In this document: in pieces, positions 30,667 through 58,735 of the stretch
Layout of the letters: the number at the start of each line of letters is the position of its first letter
How positions within the stretch are numbered: position 1 is the first letter of the stretch
Source: Patescibacteria group bacterium
GTDB lineage: Bacteria > Patescibacteriota > Patescibacteriia > Patescibacteriales > BM507
NCBI GenBank assembly: GCA_027858235.1
Contig: JAQIDC010000036.1
Location: 10,664-74,663, forward strand
Length of the DNA: 64,000 nucleotides
Direction of reading: 5' to 3'
Made by a program: the position numbers and the translations under genes
The notes under the pieces: model-generated
The model's input: the letters and a program-made list of their open reading frames with translations, nothing else
Databases searched by the model: none
What the model was told of the DNA's origin: nothing

Positions 30667-31357
30667 TTTTATTATATATTAATATTTTTTAAATCAATAG
30701 ACCTGCTTCTCAATAATCTTCTTGAAAAAATTATTATATTTTAAGGAAATTTTTGCAGTAAATTTACCTAAATATATGGATTTTTACTGAATATTATTGG
30801 GAAATAGGTCTATAAAATATTATATTCCAAATGTTAAAATAAATCAATAAATCAATAAATGAAGACAAGCAAAAAAATATTTCTATTAACTGCTTGTTAT
30901 GCTTAAAATGATCCTAGTTTGTAAATATGAACTTTATATTTTTTTAATGTTATTTTAACCAAACAAGATTAAAGTTATAGAGTAGGCTAGAATTGAGTTC
31001 ATATTATTTTAGAAACATAATTTAAAACCTCTCTATACGGGCTAAACTTAAGTATTTTTATTATATTTATTAATTATAGATTAAAATAATTGATTGACAA
31101 CAATGTATTAGGCGCCTATGTACAATTAAATCTAACCGTGCTAAGATGCATAGACAAATTAATAAATTTATTGTATAATATGTTTTTTGATTTAATATTA
31201 TACAAATTTCATTGTCTTAATTTTAATTAATCTGCAATCGATTTTTGTCAAAAAAAATAAATTTGACAATATGTCCAACACTCACATTTAGAGATTGTTC
31301 ATTTCCTTATCTCATCAGAAGTTGATAAATATTTTAAAAAAGTAAGAAAGTAAAAGT

Positions 31358-32509
31358 ATGAAAAATTTTAAACAAACATTTATAATTGCCATCATGGCAG
31401 TTATGTTATCAAGCATTAGTATCCCATCCACTGCTTTAGCAGCCGACCCACTTGCTGTCGACCTTTTATCGGCAAACAATTTTACAATTCTAGCAAAAAC
31501 CGGCATTACAAACACAGGCAGTCATTCTTCAGAAATCACTGGCAATATTGGTTCTAGCCCAATTACAGCAGCAGCTATGAGTAATGTATATTGTTCAGAA
31601 ATTACTGGCACAATTTATGGAGTCGACGCCGCTTATGTTGGTAGTGGAGACCAAACTTGCTTTGCTGGTAACCCACCTGTAGAAAACAAAACTTTAGTGG
31701 ATAATGCTATTCTAGACATGGAGACTGCCTATAATAATTTAGCCAACATGACAGATCCTACTGCTACTGAGTTAGGAGCTGGTAACATAGGTGGTTTAAC
31801 CATAACTCCTGGTCTTTATAAATGGAGCTCAAATGTTATAATCCCAACCAACGTAATATTATCAGGTAGCGCAACTGATATTTGGATTTTTCAAATCGCT
31901 GGTAATCTAAACCTTGCATCTGCTGGTGATGTTTCATCTGGTATTAAAGTAGTTCTAAGTGGCGGTGCTCAAGCTTCAAATATTTTTTGGCAAGTCGGAG
32001 GTCTAACAGGGGCTACTCTTGGCACCTACTCAACATTTAACGGAAATATTTTAAGTGCCAAACAAATAATTTTAGAGACTGGATCTATTTTAAATGGTAA
32101 AGCGCTTGCTCAAACTCAAGTTACGCTTGATGCAAATATTGTCTCATCGTCAGCTGTTGTTATTCAAGTTGAACCACCAGCAGTCGATCTTCCTACTGTT
32201 ACACCCCCAGTTGTTATCACTCTGCCGACAACAACATCTTCTTCAACTGATACGATTACGCCTATTATTAACGACACGGTTACAACTCCACTTGTAGAAG
32301 ATACTATAGAACCAACTATCACTGCAACTGAAACAATCACACCGATAATTTCAACAACCACTCCTAGCTCAACAATTACCCCAAAACTTCCAAGTGCAGG
32401 AACTAAACCTAATAATTCAAATGCCTCACAAATATTATTTTCTTTACTTGGATTAAGTGCCTTAATGTTGGTAATTTTTAAAGCAAGAAAGAAAAAATAT
32501 CTTTCTTAA
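31358..32509 (+). CDS. DUF3494 (ice-binding-like) surface protein with Thr/Pro stalk and LPSAG sorting signal
   Basis: 383 aa. In order: signal peptide; LLSANNFTILAKTGITNTG...ITGNIGSSP beta-solenoid repeats; Thr/Pro-rich linker; LPSAG, a hydrophobic stretch and KARKKK at the C-terminus. Confidence 0.8.
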   Translation: MKNFKQTFIIAIMAVMLSSISIPSTALAADPLAVDLLSANNFTILAKTGITNTGSHSSEITGNIGSSPITAAAMSNVYCSEITGTIYGVDAAYVGSGDQTCFAGNPPVENKTLVDNAILDMETAYNNLANMTDPTATELGAGNIGGLTITPGLYKWSSNVIIPTNVILSGSATDIWIFQIAGNLNLASAGDVSSGIKVVLSGGAQASNIFWQVGGLTGATLGTYSTFNGNILSAKQIILETGSILNGKALAQTQVTLDANIVSSSAVVIQVEPPAVDLPTVTPPVVITLPTTTSSSTDTITPIINDTVTTPLVEDTIEPTITATETITPIISTTTPSSTITPKLPSAGTKPNNSNASQILFSLLGLSALMLVIFKARKKKYLS

Positions 32510-32539
32510 TTGAATAATCTAAATATGTACGGTTAAAAA

Positions 32540-32569
32540 AGAAACCAGACAATTTGTTGTCTGGTTTCT
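32540..32569. other. 13-bp perfect hairpin between surface-protein gene and sortase gene
   Basis: AGAAACCAGACAA-TTTG-TTGTCTGGTTTCT. A6 lies upstream and only TT then A5 downstream, so the U-tract is on the minus strand, not the sense strand. Confidence 0.6.
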
Positions 32570-33195
32570 TAAAAACCAATTTCAAGAATATACTTATTAA
32601 ATTTTCTAAAATATTGCGTACAAAAAATATATTAATATTCTTATTAATAGGATTGCTGTTTTTATGGCAACATTTTATTATTCAAAACATCAAAACTACA
32701 CAACAAAATATAGTTGTTAAAAAGGAAACTCCCCTTTCAAACATGCAAATCGTTTCGAAGACCAGACTACCGTTATTATTAAATATTCCAAAATTGAACA
32801 TCAATGCTAATATTCAATATGTCAGCCTCACCCCAGATGGATTAATGGATGTTCCAAGTAATCAATTTGAAGTGGCTTGGTATCAACCGGGGACACCACC
32901 AGGAGAAATAGGCAGTGCAGTTATTACAGGGCATTTCGGAAAAGAAAATTCAGTTTTTAATGATTTAGATGAATTAAAAAAAGGAGACGAAATAAAGATT
33001 ATAAACGATCAAAGCAATGCCGTCGTTTTTGTTGTCAGTAAAACTGAAAAATACGAAGCCGATGATAATGCATCAACAGTATTTTTTTCAGACGATAACC
33101 AAGCTCACCTTAACTTGATAACTTGCCAAGGTGTTTGGAATAAAAATACAAAAAGCTATCCATCAAGATTAATAATTTTTACGGATTTAAAATAA
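32554..33195 (+). CDS. Sortase-family transpeptidase
   Basis: 213 aa with catalytic His (VITGHFG), Cys (LNLITCQG) and Arg (PSRLIIF). The ORF-track TTG start lies inside the hairpin. The likelier start is TTG 32614, giving MRTKNILIFLLIGLLFLW. Confidence 0.8.
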   Translation: MLSGFLKTNFKNILIKFSKILRTKNILIFLLIGLLFLWQHFIIQNIKTTQQNIVVKKETPLSNMQIVSKTRLPLLLNIPKLNINANIQYVSLTPDGLMDVPSNQFEVAWYQPGTPPGEIGSAVITGHFGKENSVFNDLDELKKGDEIKIINDQSNAVVFVVSKTEKYEADDNASTVFFSDDNQAHLNLITCQGVWNKNTKSYPSRLIIFTDLK

Positions 33196-33487: not shown

Positions 33488-33515
33488 AAAAGCGACTCAA
33501 CTGAGTCGCTTTTTC
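33488..33515 (-). terminator. Rho-independent terminator after hpf
   Basis: Stem AGCGACTC/GAGTCGCT with a 4-nt loop, flanked by A4 and T5. Confidence 0.7.
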
Positions 33516-35754: not shown

Positions 35755-36885
35755 TTATTTTTTCAATGATTTAATGGCCATATAAATAATGCTTGGATTT
35801 TCTGGGTCAATCAAAAGTTTCCATCCTGCTCTGATTGTTGGTAACTTCTGCGGTGTCCAATTTATCCCTCCGTCTGATGATTTATAAAAAGTAGTATTAG
35901 TTACATAATAAATTTCATTTGTATCTTCTTCATTAACAGCAACGGAGTTAATTTGAGATTTTATATCAGGAGTTATTAGTTCAATTTTTTCGAAAGAATC
36001 ACCGTTATTAGATGATTTAACAATACCATTAATACCCGCCAAATAGATAACAGTTGGCTCAGTGTTTAATATTATCATATCTCTAATATTATTCCCAATA
36101 CTTGATTCAGCCTCTTTTAGGGCTGTGCCTAGGTTGTCCCAATTAATACCTGAATCAAAGCTTCTAAATACTCCCTGCCTAGCTGTAACAACATACATTT
36201 TCCTACTATCTTTTGGGTCAATTAATATTTTGGCGATACTATCCTTAAATCTATAAATTGTTTTCCAGCTTTCACCAAAATCAGAGCTTTGGACCAAATC
36301 ACCTCTACTAAGTCCCATGAAAACTTTTGAATTATCAAAATGATTTACAACCAGAGAATTGACCTTAACGGCAGCATCATTATCAATATAAGTTTGCTTC
36401 CAGTGCCTTGAGCAATCATCGGTCTTGAAAACTTTATTAGAAATTGCTGTATACACCCTGCATCTTGAACCTGGATCAATTTCTAAATCATTTATTGGAG
36501 TTGCTCCGAGTGCCTTGGCCACCTGCCAACTATTACCTCCATCATAAGTATAAGCCAATCCATTCGCAACACTCCCGTAATACAAGGCCATATTATCTCC
36601 TGGATCCATTTTGAAAGAATTAACACTTGTTCCCCCAAAGTTTTTTTGAGAAGCTCCTACATCAGACAACAATACTCTTTGTTTCCAAGTGGCCCCCTTG
36701 TCGATTGATTTAAAAACGCCTCCGATATCTGCTTCAGCTTTTTTTGAATCTCCAGAATCAAAATTTACAGAGCAGGCGCTTAAAGTGAAAGCTAGAAATA
36801 ATAATGTTGATAAAAATTTTATTTTTCTTACCCTAGGGGTGCCCCGTGGGGAATGCCCTTGTGGTTCATTTGTTTTATTGTACAT
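35755..36885 (-). CDS. BNR/Asp-box repeat lipoprotein (Ycf48/sialidase-like beta-propeller)
   Basis: 376 aa with lipobox LTLSAC and repeated SxDxGxxW-type boxes (DKGATWKQ, DGGNSWQ, DFGESWK, DSGINWD, DGGINWT). Confidence 0.7.
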   Translation of the reverse strand: MYNKTNEPQGHSPRGTPRVRKIKFLSTLLFLAFTLSACSVNFDSGDSKKAEADIGGVFKSIDKGATWKQRVLLSDVGASQKNFGGTSVNSFKMDPGDNMALYYGSVANGLAYTYDGGNSWQVAKALGATPINDLEIDPGSRCRVYTAISNKVFKTDDCSRHWKQTYIDNDAAVKVNSLVVNHFDNSKVFMGLSRGDLVQSSDFGESWKTIYRFKDSIAKILIDPKDSRKMYVVTARQGVFRSFDSGINWDNLGTALKEAESSIGNNIRDMIILNTEPTVIYLAGINGIVKSSNNGDSFEKIELITPDIKSQINSVAVNEEDTNEIYYVTNTTFYKSSDGGINWTPQKLPTIRAGWKLLIDPENPSIIYMAIKSLKK

Positions 36886-54034: not shown

Positions 54035-57000
54035 CTAAACTTTTTTCTTACTTTTATTCGTAGTCTTTTTGATATTTTCTAATTCCTTTATTGTTTTTTT
54101 CATTTCTCTCATCTTTAATTCTCTACCCACCACCAAATCATTAAACTTTTCCATCTCCTCAACTTTTTCCTCAAGTTTTTTCTTATCTTTTTTTTGCTCA
54201 ATTAGTAATTTTTCTTTTTCTTTATTAATTATTTCTTCTTTTTTGAGTTGATTTTTAATAAATTCGGCCGTATTCCTTACTTCAGATGTTTTCTTATCAA
54301 CTTCTTTTCTTAATGACTTTGTTAAAAAATAACTAAAGAAAATTCCAGTAACTGCAAATGAGGCTAGAGCTATAAAAGTAAAAAACCAAATATTTTTCAT
54401 AGCACTATCTAATCCATGATATGCTTCCTTTTCTTCCCATACTGTAAGTAGAAAAATCTTTTTGTCTACAGCCTCAATTGGTTGATAATTAACTACTTGA
54501 TTTTCTCCATTAATAACAAATTCTATATATCCCTCTTTTTCTTCTTTAAAAATACTTTCTAAATCATTTTTTACTGCTTTGTATTTTTCCAATGTTAGAA
54601 TATTTTTTCCAAGATAATCATTAATCCCTGAGGTAATAATGTTCCCATCAGTTTCCAGCAAAAAAGATTCATTATTATGAATATGTTCAAGAAAGAAAGA
54701 AAGACTGCCAAAAAAATCGTTTGCATTAATAAATGAATCGACAATACCGTCAAAGTCTCCATTCTTGATTACTGGATATTGGAAGGCAATGCCTGGAAAC
54801 CCCTGTACTGCGTCAAAGATATCACTAAATACGGGACTCATAGTTTTCTTGAGCTTGATAACGTGTTCCTGCCCACCAATATCAATCCCAATTGCAGAAT
54901 CATCATTCGGATAAATATATTTTATAATATTGTCTTTATCTATTCTGGTAAAAGCGTGGACATAATCCTTGTTCCTCTCATAAGCTCCTTTCAATAAACT
55001 CAATCGGCATTCTTCACTGCAATCATCATTTGAATAATTTTCAGATATATATTCTAACTCCTTTTCCATATCTTCAAATAGCTCAAGAAGTTTTTCTGAC
55101 AAAAGATTACCTATCTCAAAATATTGTTTTCTATGGTTGTCTTTAAATTGACTCTTTAAATTATTAATAGTTGAGATAGAACCAAAAATGAACATCCCAC
55201 CAACTAGACTGAATAGAAAAATAAGAATTATTATCAAACTTGTTCTTTCTAGCTTCAAAATTTTAAAATAATATAATAATACTAAAAGAAACACAACAAC
55301 CACTAAAATAGAAATAAACAAATATATATATCTAAGATAATTAAAATTAAGAACTTCATTATTTTTCTGAACCAAGTCCTGGTCAGGCTCAATAAACTCT
55401 TTCTCATATTCATCTAAATACGTGGTGGCAGCAACACTTAGCCCAATACCGTCAGCCGTCTTAGCATCTACTATTGCGATATACATATACTTTTGAGTTA
55501 TAGTCCCATCTGCCTCTTCCCATGCATAGACTCCATCAGAAACAAGCCCACCCTCTGATTTGGACATAACATCCCAAAAACCTGGGAGCTTATTCTTTAA
55601 GGTATGTAAATCTAAATCTACTATTGCTGGATTAGTATGGTAGCGAGCCACTAAAGTATTATAATCAGTCACTGCAGTATAACCAGTTTTCCCAACTAAC
55701 TGCACGGCGATTTTCTGAAAATATGGGTCTTCTTGAAAATCTTTCACTGTCATTTCCGGGTTTCCTCTTAGGTAAATTTCCACTTGCTTAGCAACATCCT
55801 CCGCTTTTTGCTTTATAGCTAATTTTGAATATTCAAAGGAGTTCTTAATATTATATTCCTCTATATATTCTTCCGCGGTTTTTTTATCGATATATGAAGT
55901 AGCTCCTACAAATAGTTTCTTATTATCTGCTGTGGGGGTATCCACACAAGCCGTAACCATATATTTATCTGTTAAAGTCCCATTGCTTTCTTCCCATTCA
56001 TAATATCCAGATGAGTTTTTGCATTTAGGTCCAATTGATCCGCCATGAATTTTCCACCAATCAGGGAGTTGTTCTTTTAAAAGATGGGAATCTGTATTTA
56101 CTAATTTCTCTTGTGGATGAAGATAAAAATAACCTGATTCGCTATCCACAAGCCCTGTGTAACCTTCATCTCCGAGCCTTTGAACAGCAATAGATTTAAA
56201 AACATCATCTTTTTGCAAATCTTCAATCGTGAGCTCGGGGTGATTTATTAAGTACTCATCAATTTTTTCGGCAGTTTCCTTTGCGTACGATTGAATAAAT
56301 TCTACATCAACAGATTTATTTTCAACGAGAATCGGAGCTATCCATTCATTGTATATTTCATCAAATTGCCCACTAATGATAATTTTTGACAATCCATCAT
56401 TAAGCCTAGTTAATAATTCTGCATTCCCTTCTTGCACAGCAAAAGTAAAGTCTTGTTTGAAATTATCAATTTGAGAGACTGCAATAACATTATTTATTCC
56501 TAATTTTTTTATTAGTTGTTTTCCGACTATTTCTTGAATAATAATTGCGTCATATTTTCCTTCAGCCAGTAGAGTAAATGCTTCCTCATAGCTCTCAACT
56601 GCAATAATGTTATCTGATACCTTCTCGCGTCGTGCAAATTCCTCGGCATTATCTCCTGCCATTACAAGCACTTCTTTCCCCCATAGGTCAGATAATTTAT
56701 TTATATTATCATGATCTCTTCTAACAAAAATATTTCCATAAATAGAAATATAGGGAACGGTAAAATCATACAAGACTTCTCGCTCTGGAGTTCTCCCAAC
56801 CAAAGGTAATACGTCAATTCTTCCTTCTGTCAAATCTTCTTTTATTTCAGACCAAGGTCCAACATAAAACTCAACATCTAGATCCACAGCTTTAAGCGTA
56901 GCCTCTAATAACTCAACAGAAAAACCATCTGCTTGACCATCGTTAATAACAGAAAAAGGTGGATAATCGTATTCTGTTGCTGATTTAATAGTTGGAGTGG

Positions 57001-57115
57001 TTACTTCTCCATCAACAAAAAAATTGTCATTGCCGACAGCATTAACATGACTAAAGGTTATTAAACCTGAAAAAATTAATAGTCCTAAAAATAAAATCCT
57101 CCTTGTTATATTCAT
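54035..57115 (-). CDS. Multi-domain extracytoplasmic sensor-like protein lacking a recognisable output domain
   Basis: 1026 aa, in order: signal peptide; SBP_bac_3-like domain (EYDYPPFSV...GFSVELL); two paralogous sCache-like domains; TM hairpin; a third Cache-like region; a final TM; then ~90 aa of K/E coiled coil. Confidence 0.7.
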   Translation of the reverse strand: MNITRRILFLGLLIFSGLITFSHVNAVGNDNFFVDGEVTTPTIKSATEYDYPPFSVINDGQADGFSVELLEATLKAVDLDVEFYVGPWSEIKEDLTEGRIDVLPLVGRTPEREVLYDFTVPYISIYGNIFVRRDHDNINKLSDLWGKEVLVMAGDNAEEFARREKVSDNIIAVESYEEAFTLLAEGKYDAIIIQEIVGKQLIKKLGINNVIAVSQIDNFKQDFTFAVQEGNAELLTRLNDGLSKIIISGQFDEIYNEWIAPILVENKSVDVEFIQSYAKETAEKIDEYLINHPELTIEDLQKDDVFKSIAVQRLGDEGYTGLVDSESGYFYLHPQEKLVNTDSHLLKEQLPDWWKIHGGSIGPKCKNSSGYYEWEESNGTLTDKYMVTACVDTPTADNKKLFVGATSYIDKKTAEEYIEEYNIKNSFEYSKLAIKQKAEDVAKQVEIYLRGNPEMTVKDFQEDPYFQKIAVQLVGKTGYTAVTDYNTLVARYHTNPAIVDLDLHTLKNKLPGFWDVMSKSEGGLVSDGVYAWEEADGTITQKYMYIAIVDAKTADGIGLSVAATTYLDEYEKEFIEPDQDLVQKNNEVLNFNYLRYIYLFISILVVVVFLLVLLYYFKILKLERTSLIIILIFLFSLVGGMFIFGSISTINNLKSQFKDNHRKQYFEIGNLLSEKLLELFEDMEKELEYISENYSNDDCSEECRLSLLKGAYERNKDYVHAFTRIDKDNIIKYIYPNDDSAIGIDIGGQEHVIKLKKTMSPVFSDIFDAVQGFPGIAFQYPVIKNGDFDGIVDSFINANDFFGSLSFFLEHIHNNESFLLETDGNIITSGINDYLGKNILTLEKYKAVKNDLESIFKEEKEGYIEFVINGENQVVNYQPIEAVDKKIFLLTVWEEKEAYHGLDSAMKNIWFFTFIALASFAVTGIFFSYFLTKSLRKEVDKKTSEVRNTAEFIKNQLKKEEIINKEKEKLLIEQKKDKKKLEEKVEEMEKFNDLVVGRELKMREMKKTIKELENIKKTTNKSKKKV

Positions 57116-57216: not shown

Positions 57217-58257
57217 TTATCTTCCTCTTCCTCTCCCATTATTCACTTTCGATGGATCTTCCTTGTTGGGCCCCTTCATTTTAATAAAATGTTTAGCATT
57301 ATTTGTAATAGCTTTTGTTGAATTTATAATACCATTTATATTTTTTTGATCTTCATTCTCTATGGCTTCAGTAACAGTCTCCACTCTCTTGTCTAGTTTC
57401 TCGAAAAGAGCTTCAACGTCTGTTTCGTCATAGTCATCATCTTTTAAATCAATCTTTAGAGCTTCAACTTTTTCTTTAAGTTCCAAAAGTCTCTCAGTAT
57501 TTTCTAGGTCTTCTGTTATTCTATCGCTACTATTTTCTCCTTGTCCCATCAGTCTGTCGTCTGATTCAAGATTATTTGAACGTATTTGTCCATTATTAAA
57601 TTTTGTAGAACTAGCATTTCTCATCATTTCACCCCTTCCGTTATTATTCACTTGAATATTTTCTCCAATGTTATCCATCGCCGATGCAATATTTTCTACT
57701 AATTCATCATCCTCTTCAATACCGACAAAAGATGCTATGTTATTTAGCTTTTCTCTTTGATTTATACGACTTTGTTCGCTTCCATCTCCTTCTTTAAAAG
57801 CGATCTCTCTAGCCTTTTCCTTCAAAGCAACTGCCGCCTTAATTGTATTTGAGATAGCCACTCTGTCTTCATTTTCTTTTATGTTTTCACTCAAAACTTC
57901 TGCTTCACTCAGCCTTCTTTCAGAAAATTTTTCATATTTTTCTTGCTTTTCAATATCAGTATTCGCTACTTTTAATTCAATCTTTTCTATAGCTAATTTA
58001 ACAGGATATAAAATATGTTTTTCATTTACCCCAGGGCTTGCATAACTATACAAAGGGAGTCCAAACAATAAAGATAGAAGTAAAACAAAAGAGATAGCTC
58101 TATGTTGAAATTTCCTATTCAAAAGAAATTCAAAACTAAAACTTTCCTGAATAATCAAAACATATAGTTTATATTTCAAATTCATTTTTTTTACCAAACT
58201 CATTTTAGGTTTTGGTAAGCTATTCAATTGTTTATCTAACTTATTCATATTATTCAA
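57217..58257 (-). CDS. Membrane-anchored DUF5667-like protein, putative anti-sigma partner
   Basis: 346 aa with one TM (ISFVLLLSLLFGLPLY). YPVKLAIEKIELKVA...FSERRLSEAEVL resembles the DUF5667 consensus as I recall it. It overlaps the sigma gene by 8 nt. It has no Cys, so no ZAS motif. Confidence 0.5.
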   Translation of the reverse strand: MNNMNKLDKQLNSLPKPKMSLVKKMNLKYKLYVLIIQESFSFEFLLNRKFQHRAISFVLLLSLLFGLPLYSYASPGVNEKHILYPVKLAIEKIELKVANTDIEKQEKYEKFSERRLSEAEVLSENIKENEDRVAISNTIKAAVALKEKAREIAFKEGDGSEQSRINQREKLNNIASFVGIEEDDELVENIASAMDNIGENIQVNNNGRGEMMRNASSTKFNNGQIRSNNLESDDRLMGQGENSSDRITEDLENTERLLELKEKVEALKIDLKDDDYDETDVEALFEKLDKRVETVTEAIENEDQKNINGIINSTKAITNNAKHFIKMKGPNKEDPSKVNNGRGRGR

Positions 58258-58735
58258 TATCTTCTCTTAATTTATTCAGAGCTCTGTTCAGCTGTACTCT
58301 AACCGCATTCACCTCTTTGTCTAAAATTTCGGCTATCTCCTTGTTGTCCAGTTCGTCAACATATCTCATTATTACAACTTCTCTTGAATAATCATCCAAT
58401 TTTCCAATATGCTTCATTATTCGCTCAACCTCAATGCTTGTATTTATTTTTTGCAAAGTTTCAACTGATAGATCCAGAGCACTCTCAAGGTCAACTTCCC
58501 TCCCTCTCGTTCTATAGTGATTTAACAAATGATTTTTAGCTATTCTGTATATCCAGGACTGAAAAGATCTAGTTTCATCGAAGCTATCATGACTCTTAAA
58601 TGCTTTCAAAAATATTTCCGAGCACAAATCCTCTGCCGTTGTCTTATCAAAACCAACTCGATACCAAATATAGGCATAAATCTTATCAACATACTTATTA
58701 TAGTTCGCTAGAAAATTTTTATTGTCTTTTGACAT
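58250..58735 (-). CDS. ECF-type RNA polymerase sigma factor (sigma-70 regions 2 and 4)
   Basis: 161 aa. Region 2: FLKAFKSHDSFDETRSFQSWIYRIAKNHLLNHYR. Region 4: VVIMRYVDELDNKEIAEILDKEVNAVRVQLNRALNKLR. Confidence 0.88.
   Translation of the reverse strand: MSKDNKNFLANYNKYVDKIYAYIWYRVGFDKTTAEDLCSEIFLKAFKSHDSFDETRSFQSWIYRIAKNHLLNHYRTRGREVDLESALDLSVETLQKINTSIEVERIMKHIGKLDDYSREVVIMRYVDELDNKEIAEILDKEVNAVRVQLNRALNKLREDIE

Follow-up and report, generated by a model that had tools for sequence, protein, structure and literature searches.

A predicted sortase-anchored DUF3494 surface protein, its adjacent class F-like sortase and a conserved junction hairpin in Patescibacteria

Organization of the locus

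The window analysed here, a stretch of 64,000 nucleotides (nt) of contig JAQIDC010000036.1 from a Patescibacteria group bacterium, encodes on its plus strand a DUF3494 (ice-binding-like) protein with a C-terminal sorting signal (gene 1) followed by a sortase (gene 2). The two genes probably form a surface-display unit of this Patescibacteria (candidate phyla radiation, CPR) bacterium, in which the DUF3494 head would be anchored to the cell wall by the neighbouring sortase. Their open reading frames (ORFs; 31358-32509, 383 amino acids (aa), and 32554-33195, 213 aa from a TTG codon; Table 1) stand among genes that are nearly all on the minus strand, with secA on one side and hpf, a rseP-like gene, frr and others on the other, and the ORF calls agree in position with the plus-strand two-gene island which an initial annotation, made from the sequence alone, had placed in this minus-strand region. 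The GC content of the island is 0.32-0.33 versus 0.31-0.37 across the window, and horizontal transfer of the island, for which there is thus no compositional sign, was not retained.

Both proteins are present in GenBank as members of exact-sequence clusters, MDA3840120.1 as an 'ice-binding family protein' and MDA3840121.1 as a 'class F sortase', each from a metagenome-assembled genome (MAG) titled 'Patescibacteria group bacterium', and the basic annotation of both genes is thus already public.

Table 1. Features of the DUF3494-sortase unit and of related loci. Positions refer to the window or, where a locus number (L) is given, to that comparison or metagenome locus.
Feature	Position	Strand	Description
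Promoter-like site TAGACA-17-TATAAT	31151-31179	+	About 180 nt upstream of gene 1; consensus scan, 11/12 positions
Gene 1, precursor of predicted cell-wall-anchored DUF3494 (ice-binding-like) surface protein, 383 aa	31358-32509	+	ORF; PF11999; 6647 homologues
Signal peptide MKNFKQTFIIAIMAVMLSSISIPSTALA, aa 1-28	31358-31441	+	Predicted cleavage between ALA and ADP; inspection and hydropathy
DUF3494 beta-solenoid head, aa 29-265	31442-32152	+	AF2 model, Foldseek
Thr/Pro/Ile-rich stalk or linker, aa 266-343	32153-32386	+	78 aa: 23 T, 12 P, 11 I, 9 V
Predicted cell-wall sorting signal	32387-32497	+	LPSAG, spacer, hydrophobic segment, basic tail
LPSAG pentapeptide, aa 344-348	32387-32401	+	Followed by the 7-residue spacer TKPNNSN
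Hydrophobic segment ASQILFSLLGLSALMLVIF, aa 356-374	32423-32479	+	19 residues; Kyte-Doolittle maximum 2.7
Basic tail KARKKK, aa 375-380	32480-32497	+	C-terminal
Conserved RNA hairpin element (predicted)	32533-32583	+	Stem 32540-32569, 13 bp: AGAAACCAGACAA-tttg-TTGTCTGGTTTCT
Gene 2, membrane-anchored class F-like sortase	32614-33195	+	GenBank MDA3840121.1, 193 aa from TTG 32614
Catalytic residues His127 (32932-32934), Cys191 in NLITC (33124-33126), Arg205 (33166-33168)	32932-33168	+	Numbered from 32554; codons checked
Terminator-like hairpin AAAAGCGACTCA-ACTG-AGTCGCTTTT	33488-33513		Scan: 11 pairs, 5 G-C, then T-run
Hairpin members besides the window	L053 7932, L022 86, L056 275, L012 6879, L008 3167, L032 7726, L013 7960, L080 6146, L057 2071, L062 1142, L018 1059, L066 7816, L038 7551, L044 7987, L002 7885, L074 2148, L025 7761, L003 7889
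Metagenome hairpin loci	L091, L104, L121, L146, L148, L150, L151, L156
PG_binding_1-like DUF3494 paralogues	L010 1259-2512, L011 9892-11202, L021 522-2078, L038 4446-5705, L041 10426-11649, L047 3171-4436, L064 4684-5937, L075 4594-5682, L082 4959-6200

The DUF3494 surface protein

Gene 1 matches the Pfam family Ice_binding (PF11999) over profile positions 1-207 of 208 (E=2.4e-58, 197.7 bits, cut-off 28.7). Its score of 230.1 bits against the NCBIfam equivalog IBP_CFB (NF045625) lies under the cut-off of 400, and the protein is thus a homologue, not an equivalog, of IBP_CFB. The predicted signal peptide opens with basic, Lys-rich residues, continues with a hydrophobic core (Kyte-Doolittle maximum at aa 8-22) and includes A-L-A before the cleavage site, and the predicted mature N-terminus aligns with residue 5 of crystallised ice-binding proteins (IBPs).

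In the AlphaFold2 (AF2) model the head (predicted local distance difference test score, pLDDT, 82-94) folds as a beta-solenoid with a long bracing helix at its flank (aa 108-129), and Foldseek aligns it with 4NU2, 7EHK, 3WP9 and 9LHN at template-modelling (TM) scores, normalised to the target, of 0.87-0.92, with 44-47% identity to the IBPs of Flavobacterium frigoris (FfIBP), Colwellia (ColAFP) and Ca. Cryosericum odellii. The sole cysteines, C79 and C101, align with the cysteine pair in the capping head of FfIBP, do not vary among 40 relatives and are predicted to form a capping-head disulfide as in the FfIBP subgroup. As fold, identity and capping-head cysteines all match, the head is a genuine FfIBP-type DUF3494 domain. 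The motifs which the initial annotation had quoted as DUF3494 repeats are located at aa 41-54 (NFTILAKTGITNTG), aa 60-68 (ITGNIGSSP) and aa 209-215 (IFWQVGG), and the beta-solenoid which it had proposed to verify by structure prediction is supported by the AF2 model and its Foldseek matches. Lys111 is invariant in the close clade.

The stalk, which had been estimated at about 75 aa and is located where it was expected, as is the signal peptide, is left disordered by AF2 (pLDDT <50 for residues 288-352), and its position in relatives is filled by SpaA_2, DUF7507 or DUF11 immunoglobulin (Ig)-like stalk domains.

The sortase and its start codon

Gene 2 matches the Pfam family Sortase (PF04203; E=4e-21, 75.5 bits, cut-off 26.6), so that the hidden Markov model (HMM) scan bears out both families named in the initial annotation. 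The catalytic residues His127, Cys191 and Arg205, which had been described as intact, are invariant in alignments of 14 and of 60 homologues. From its N-terminus, the enzyme comprises a membrane anchor (hydrophobic aa 26-42, within a modelled helix of aa 10-48), a linker that is disordered in the model and a sortase barrel with pLDDT >90 (aa 71-213). In Foldseek this barrel matches class A, C, D and E sortases (probability 1.0) at 17-25% identity only, the best fold matches being class C (pilus) sortases at 17-24% identity, and no solved structure is nearer than 25% identity. Among the NCBIfam classes, class F (NF033748) scores 112.3 bits, under its curated cut-off of 166, versus 33.8 for class E, 32.2 for class D and 29.4 for class C, and the enzyme is provisionally regarded as class F-like. 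Profile searches of the 64-kb window found no second sortase and no second DUF3494 gene.

The open frame of gene 2 reaches upstream to TTG 32554, which is the start in the JGI call and in the ORF list (213 aa). Homologous sortases begin at an ATG after the junction hairpin described below (MRxKILSK…, MNLSKILSRR…), and the window codon aligned to this ATG is ATT 32596 (…IKFSKILRTKN…). None of the candidate starts 32554, 32596 and 32614 is preceded by an obvious Shine-Dalgarno sequence. As TTG 32554 falls inside the conserved hairpin, the sortase start is placed downstream of it, most likely at 32596-32614.

Sorting signal

Gene 1 ends in LPSAG, a spacer, a hydrophobic segment and a basic tail, exactly at the position (nt 32387) from which the initial annotation had read an LPSAG + hydrophobic + KARKKK tail. 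The pentapeptide departs from the canonical LPXTG (X represents any amino acid), yet fits the clade consensus [LF]Px[TA]G, and the window tail TPKLPSAGTKP fits the family signal consensus P-[KG]-[LF]-P-N-[TA]-G-[IFLV]-[APG]-P, as well as its looser form P-[KG]-[LF]-P-x-[TA]-G-x-x-P. Of 64 aligned signals, 48 have Thr at position 4 of the pentapeptide, 13 have Ala and 3 have Ser. Sortases beside Ala-type substrates do not cluster, and most of the sortases nearest to them have Thr-type partners: L002, whose sortase is the closest to the window enzyme (61% identity), has an LPNTG substrate, the sortase beside the LPKAG substrate of L057 shares 84% identity with sortases paired with LPNTG or LPATG, and loci L047 and L071 each contain one sortase with both Thr and Ala substrates alongside. 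LPSAG as a private tag is thus rejected, since Ala and Thr are exchanged among close sortases and within single loci, and by comparison of these sequences LPSAG is an ordinary variant of the family signal. Of the private substrate-enzyme pair proposed in the initial annotation, the cognate gene pair therefore stands (synteny in 63 of 69 loci, see below), while LPSAG as its sign does not, being an Ala form that occurs in 13 of 64 signals and interchanges with Thr. Because of this interchange, the putative dedication is one of a sortase family to the DUF3494 family and is not due to Ala.

A regular-expression screen of all six frames of the 64-kb window revealed no sorting-signal tail besides that of gene 1, and no further sorting signal was found in an 8-kb left extension of the window. 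A profile of 45 signal tails retrieved nothing at E<=10 from the protein database, the query being too short.

Three loci (L017 7012-7905, L050 6888-7841 and L077 1203-2189; high-GC) contain a DUF3494 ORF ending in …VPKLPNAG[IA]GPR[RN] directly before the sortase gene, with a TAA stop in the two loci read, and their sorting motif is thus without a hydrophobic or charged tail. Two of the three are titled Saccharibacteria/Saccharimonadia.

Conserved pairing of DUF3494 genes with the sortase

A scan of one genome per species with the sortase alignment gave at least 578 confirmed matches, of which the best 80 were used as comparison loci. The titles of these 80 are nearly all Patescibacteria or unclassified MAGs, a few naming other taxa, and include Saccharibacteria, Paceibacterota/Parcubacteria, Uhr-, Magasanik-, Berkel-, Peri-, Gracili-, Komeili-, Woese-, Lloyd- and Moranii-bacteria. 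In 47 of the 69 loci regarded as informative (1.5 kb or more of sequence before the sortase), an HMM of close relatives detects a same-strand DUF3494 ORF at the sortase, and another 16 contain a signal-bearing ORF in this place; all ten of the latter that were tested belong to PF11999, with the domain fused to SpaA_2, DUF7507 or DUF11 stalk domains. A DUF3494 gene thus directly precedes the sortase in 63 of 69 informative loci (91%). Strict sorting-signal ORFs in these loci (1.04 Mb) are DUF3494-like in 64 of 73 cases, while most of the other nine either are cut off by a contig end and contain the same stalk repeats or are false positives. The pairing is therefore family-wide.

The pair is not tied to one chromosomal setting. 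Among close relatives it occurs in three unrelated genomic contexts, each time as a plus-strand unit amid minus-strand genes, and L002 and L003 have cation ATPase or Fur/peroxiredoxin neighbours. The functional gene pair suggested by the initial annotation hence recurs both across contexts and over the informative loci.

Two or three tandem DUF3494 genes stand beside one sortase in 18 of 82 loci. These loci include L011, L034, L036, L047, L053, L059 and L064; the stalk lengths of the tandem copies often differ, and the arrangement recalls pilin clusters. DUF3494 paralogues in many of the sortase loci (Table 1) have a PG_binding_1-like C-terminus (…YFGxLTRAALAEFQ…GxFGPITRAY…) in place of the sorting signal, which may be a non-covalent route to the wall for the same head. 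As these paralogues end in a peptidoglycan-binding-like C-terminus, wall attachment appears to be the common requirement.

More than half of CPR genomes contain a sortase family (PMC6744442). Within the library searched, no paper names DUF3494 and sortase together or links 'ice-binding' to the 'candidate phyla radiation', and four papers naming both 'ice-binding' and 'Patescibacteria' looked unrelated, as judged by title. A 2026 preprint on a 'novel CPR pilus' was rejected as a match, its pilins being Ig-like and of another kind. The near-obligate synteny of DUF3494 and sortase genes across Patescibacteria is apparently unreported, and the same seems to hold for the conserved junction hairpin.

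A conserved hairpin at the substrate-sortase junction

The junction between the two genes contains a hairpin with a minimum free energy of -26.3 kcal/mol (z=-4.8 versus shuffled sequences), the core of which, CCAGAC…GTCTGG (extended GCCAGAC…GTCTGGC), occurs once in the window and in six copies in 82 comparison loci. Six of these seven copies lie directly 5' of a sortase ORF, and the seventh (L022) lies before an ATG with a typical sortase N-terminus. A covariance model from the seven seeds detected twelve more members with variant cores (CCAGGC/GCCTGG, GTCGGAC/GTTTGAC and others), and a second model from all 19 found no further members in 1.11 Mb. The hairpin is therefore present in 19 of 84 sequences searched (Table 1), always directly 5' of the sortase gene and on the sense strand; every model match with E<0.05 sits at a sortase 5' end, the sense score exceeding the antisense score by 10-20 bits. 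Pairing over the 19 members amounts to 96% of cells, including 17 G.U cells, with 8 of 13 pairs changing on both sides, and falls to 29-49% in slid controls. The six core pairs of the seed are paired by construction, whereas the outer and inner pairs were not and covary. The conserved flanks are AG-N-AA-N-N-AA-R on the 5' side and YTTG-Y-GGTTA on the 3' side, the sortase ATG following about 25 nt further.

Two other readings of this element were discarded. A conserved peptide is not supported, as the frame PD[KNQR]xLSG is found in the sortase frame in only four of seven members, with stop codons in the others, and a DNA palindrome or operator is disfavoured by the 17 sense-strand G.U cells and the higher sense scores. 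The junction element is thus, as predicted from covariation and strand asymmetry, a sense-strand RNA structure. It has no match in Rfam 15 at gathering thresholds over the whole window, and a permissive Rfam search of 32450-32700 returned only noise (<=22 bits, E >=0.25).

The bare core (GCCAGACAAN{2,8}TTGTCTGGC) was rejected as a marker in a metagenome collection for lack of specificity: of the 80 loci that it retrieved, 72 contain ordinary hairpins in surroundings unrelated to the junction. There, the junction elements are separated only by the complete model, flanks included (>50 bits, with strong asymmetry between the strands). The eight top matches of this model (47-63 bits, far stronger on one strand) all lie directly after an LPxTG-bearing gene, which is mostly DUF3494-like. 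An intact sortase follows in six of the eight, and in L151 a sortase N-terminus runs off the contig end. In L121 (969-1804) the DUF3494 gene and a 63-bit hairpin are followed by an ORF that looks by eye like a transposase (…FWIYAKHILYNYRGVSKYHFPMYLKEVEYRFNHR…) in place of the sortase, apparently an insertion at the junction.

Relation to known systems

FfIBP (4NU2), ColAFP (3WP9) and the Ca. Cryosericum odellii IBP (9LHN) share with the window head the helix-braced beta-solenoid, and IBPs of the FfIBP type also share the N- and C-terminal domain boundaries as well as the capping-head Cys pair. They are secreted single-domain proteins, whereas the window protein has a stalk, a sortase signal and an adjacent sortase. 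FfIBP and ColAFP are from Antarctic sources according to the Foldseek descriptions, while the clade of the window protein is found in many genomes whose titles suggest unfrozen habitats. Ice activity of FfIBP, as thermal hysteresis, has been measured (PMC10853241).

A closer architectural parallel is provided by tethered DUF3494 adhesins (SfIBP_1, 6BG8; PMC8286594), which have the same order of DUF3494 head, stalk and cell anchor. Ice_binding has been listed as an 'adhesive' head of fibrillar adhesins (Monzon et al. 2021, PMC8286594), and relatives of the window protein use SpaA_2 stalks (PF19403), a family defined in the same study. In SfIBP_1 of Shewanella frigidimarina, Ig-like repeats tether the protein to the cell membrane (PMC9957290), whereas the window protein has a low-complexity Thr/Pro linker and a predicted covalent, sortase-mediated anchor, with the sortase encoded next door.

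The class F profile NF033748 is the best class for the window enzyme by about 80 bits and agrees with its GenBank name. Class F sortases, of which SrtF of Cutibacterium acnes is an example, are small enzymes with a single N-terminal membrane anchor and an LPxTG-like substrate motif, as is the window enzyme, which differs from the class F reference in its score (112 versus a cut-off of 166), its CPR lineage and its specific substrate family. Dedicated sortase-substrate gene pairs are known in Gram-positive bacteria, such as SrtB-IsdC, class D SrtC-BasH/BasI and class E sortases with LAxTG substrates, and resemble the window pair in their adjacent genes, variant pentapeptide, His/Cys/Arg site and presumed transpeptidation. 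Unlike these pairs, the window enzyme is nearest to class F rather than to B, D or E, its substrate family is DUF3494, and the pairing spans a superphylum rather than a genus and includes a conserved RNA hairpin.

Proposed surface display

By analogy with the sortase family, the gene 1 product would leave the cell via Sec with removal of its signal peptide, while the hydrophobic segment near its C-terminus, together with KARKKK, would retain the precursor in the membrane. LPSAG would then be cut between Ala and Gly by the membrane-anchored sortase encoded next to it (Cys191, His127, Arg205), which would hand the protein to a peptidoglycan precursor, so that the DUF3494 beta-solenoid head would end covalently fixed to the wall on a flexible Thr/Pro stalk of about 78 residues. 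The window encodes MreB, MreC, a PBP2-type transpeptidase, SecA and SecDF, and MurJ is encoded on the same contig just past the left window end. With MreB, MreC, PBP2 and MurJ at hand, a peptidoglycan acceptor for the sortase should exist and is plausibly present in this organism. The hairpin may set the ratio of an abundant substrate to a scarce enzyme, through partial termination, 3'-end stabilisation of the gene 1 message or limitation of sortase translation, and with low certainty it is proposed to lower or gate sortase expression relative to the substrate.

Several results weigh against this interpretation. The gene 1 tail scores 14.3 bits against Gram_pos_anchor (PF00746), under the cut-off of 20, and the class F score of the sortase is likewise sub-threshold. 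A terminator scan did not call the junction hairpin, the window stem being followed by UAAAAACC without a U-tract, although the tail is U-richer in other members (…CAUUUGUGGUUAU). The comparison loci are the best matches to this sortase subfamily, and farther CPR sortases may behave differently, while the substrate screen in the organism's own genome spans about 72 kb (about 10% of the genome). The closest characterised homologues of the head are genuine, even hyperactive, ice binders. The cultured Saccharibacterium Southlakia has two sortases and no annotated DUF3494 or ice-binding protein (PMC10633639). In transposon sequencing (Tn-seq) tables of Southlakia epibionticum ML1, the sortase SEML1_0327, beside PEGA- and PKD-domain proteins, is scored as growth-defective or essential, and SEML1_0711, a sortase of class E, as non-essential and with a growth advantage (PMC10633639).

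An alternative is that the protein is a true ice adhesin, the wall-anchored head binding ice and so tethering or protecting the cell in a freezing habitat, as conceived for SfIBP_1. The identity of the head to the F. frigoris, Colwellia and Ca. Cryosericum odellii IBPs, the Antarctic origin of the first two, the measured activity of FfIBP and the shared capping-head Cys pair favour this function. On the other hand, with at least 578 matches, the module is spread over hundreds of Patescibacteria species, and the habitats of module-bearing genomes, which we take from record titles and sample codes to be aquifers (Rifle), Crystal Geyser, Zodletone spring, Lac Pavin, lakes and peat, look unfrozen. 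The source-sample identifiers of the window gave no match in any paper. DUF3494 is also treated as a substrate-adhesion domain in non-polar organisms (PMC12337378), and ice activity is not readable from sequence. An ice adhesin is thus considered unlikely, and a general role in adhesion or as a surface coat, as suggested by the habitat names, is favoured for the head. The attachment factor for an episymbiotic lifestyle that the initial annotation had suggested stays hypothetical.

It also appears rather improbable that the enzyme is a housekeeping sortase with many unrelated substrates elsewhere, for which adjacency to DUF3494 would merely be the commonest arrangement. Class F is the housekeeping class in some Actinobacteria. 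The substrate screen covers only about a tenth of this genome, and CPR proteins with 'sortase motifs' on other domains have been mentioned (PMC5220378). Against these points stand the 91% synteny with DUF3494 over phylum-level distances, the DUF3494 identity of 64 of 73 signal-bearing ORFs in the loci, and the absence of any other signal in the window or its 8-kb extension; as the sample is biased to sortase-gene neighbourhoods, these results only weaken the housekeeping explanation. Least probable is a pilus-type polymerase joining DUF3494 subunits head-to-tail into a covalent fibre, instead of or before wall anchoring, since the tandem DUF3494 genes in 18 of 82 loci, the class C fold matches and the Lys111 invariant in the close clade are offset by the single substrate gene of the window, the lack of an identified pilin motif or lid, the profile scores (class F 112 bits versus class C 29 bits) and a class C likeness that stays at 17-24% identity and is common to classes A, D and E.

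The display of a DUF3494 head by its neighbouring sortase therefore remains the preferred explanation of the locus. A broader proposal, which is put forward as a speculative extension, is that this is a superphylum-wide module in which a class F-like sortase has essentially only DUF3494 clients, that these are the main covalently wall-anchored surface or host-contact proteins of these episymbionts, and that the junction hairpin controls the amount of sortase. Patescibacteria account for much of bacterial diversity and have an attached lifestyle on other cells, yet their known surface proteins are few. Should DUF3494 proteins be the standard sortase cargo of CPR bacteria, they would be widely conserved candidates for a covalently anchored surface layer or host-contact adhesin, and the 'ice-binding' fold would serve a general surface role well outside frozen habitats. 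The hairpin would be a small candidate cis-regulatory RNA specific to the DUF3494-sortase module. The window alone is mostly confirmatory, since both gene names are already in GenBank and LPSAG is not special; the interest of the system is considered moderate because the near-obligate synteny and the junction hairpin are apparently unreported.

Flanking regions and other features of the window

The intergenic region between the divergent secA and gene 1 (30667-31357, 690 nt) is unusually long and very AT-rich, and contains repeats and promoter-like hexamers at chance level only. The promoter-like site upstream of gene 1 is a candidate only, given the AT-richness of the region and the number of such sites in the scan, 22 versus 17.5 expected. 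Downstream, the hairpin at 33488-33513 is strong and symmetric, lies between the convergent sortase and hpf/raiA genes, and is likely the 3' end of the unit as a bidirectional terminator; the hpf gene matches the Pfam family Ribosomal_S30AE. A tRNA scan and an Rfam scan of the whole 64-kb window were both empty.

Another predicted surface protein is encoded 2.5 kb from the sortase (35755-36885, minus strand), a 376-aa putative lipoprotein (…LAFTLSAC…) with faint matches to beta-propellers of the BNR/Sortilin-Vps10 type. Further along the minus strand, a 1026-aa protein (54035-57115) joins SBP_bac_3 and dCache-like sensor domains and lies beside an extracytoplasmic function (ECF)-type sigma factor and a DUF5667 protein (57217-58735), the Pfam assignments being those of the matching JGI contig. 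These three proteins may form a signalling unit.

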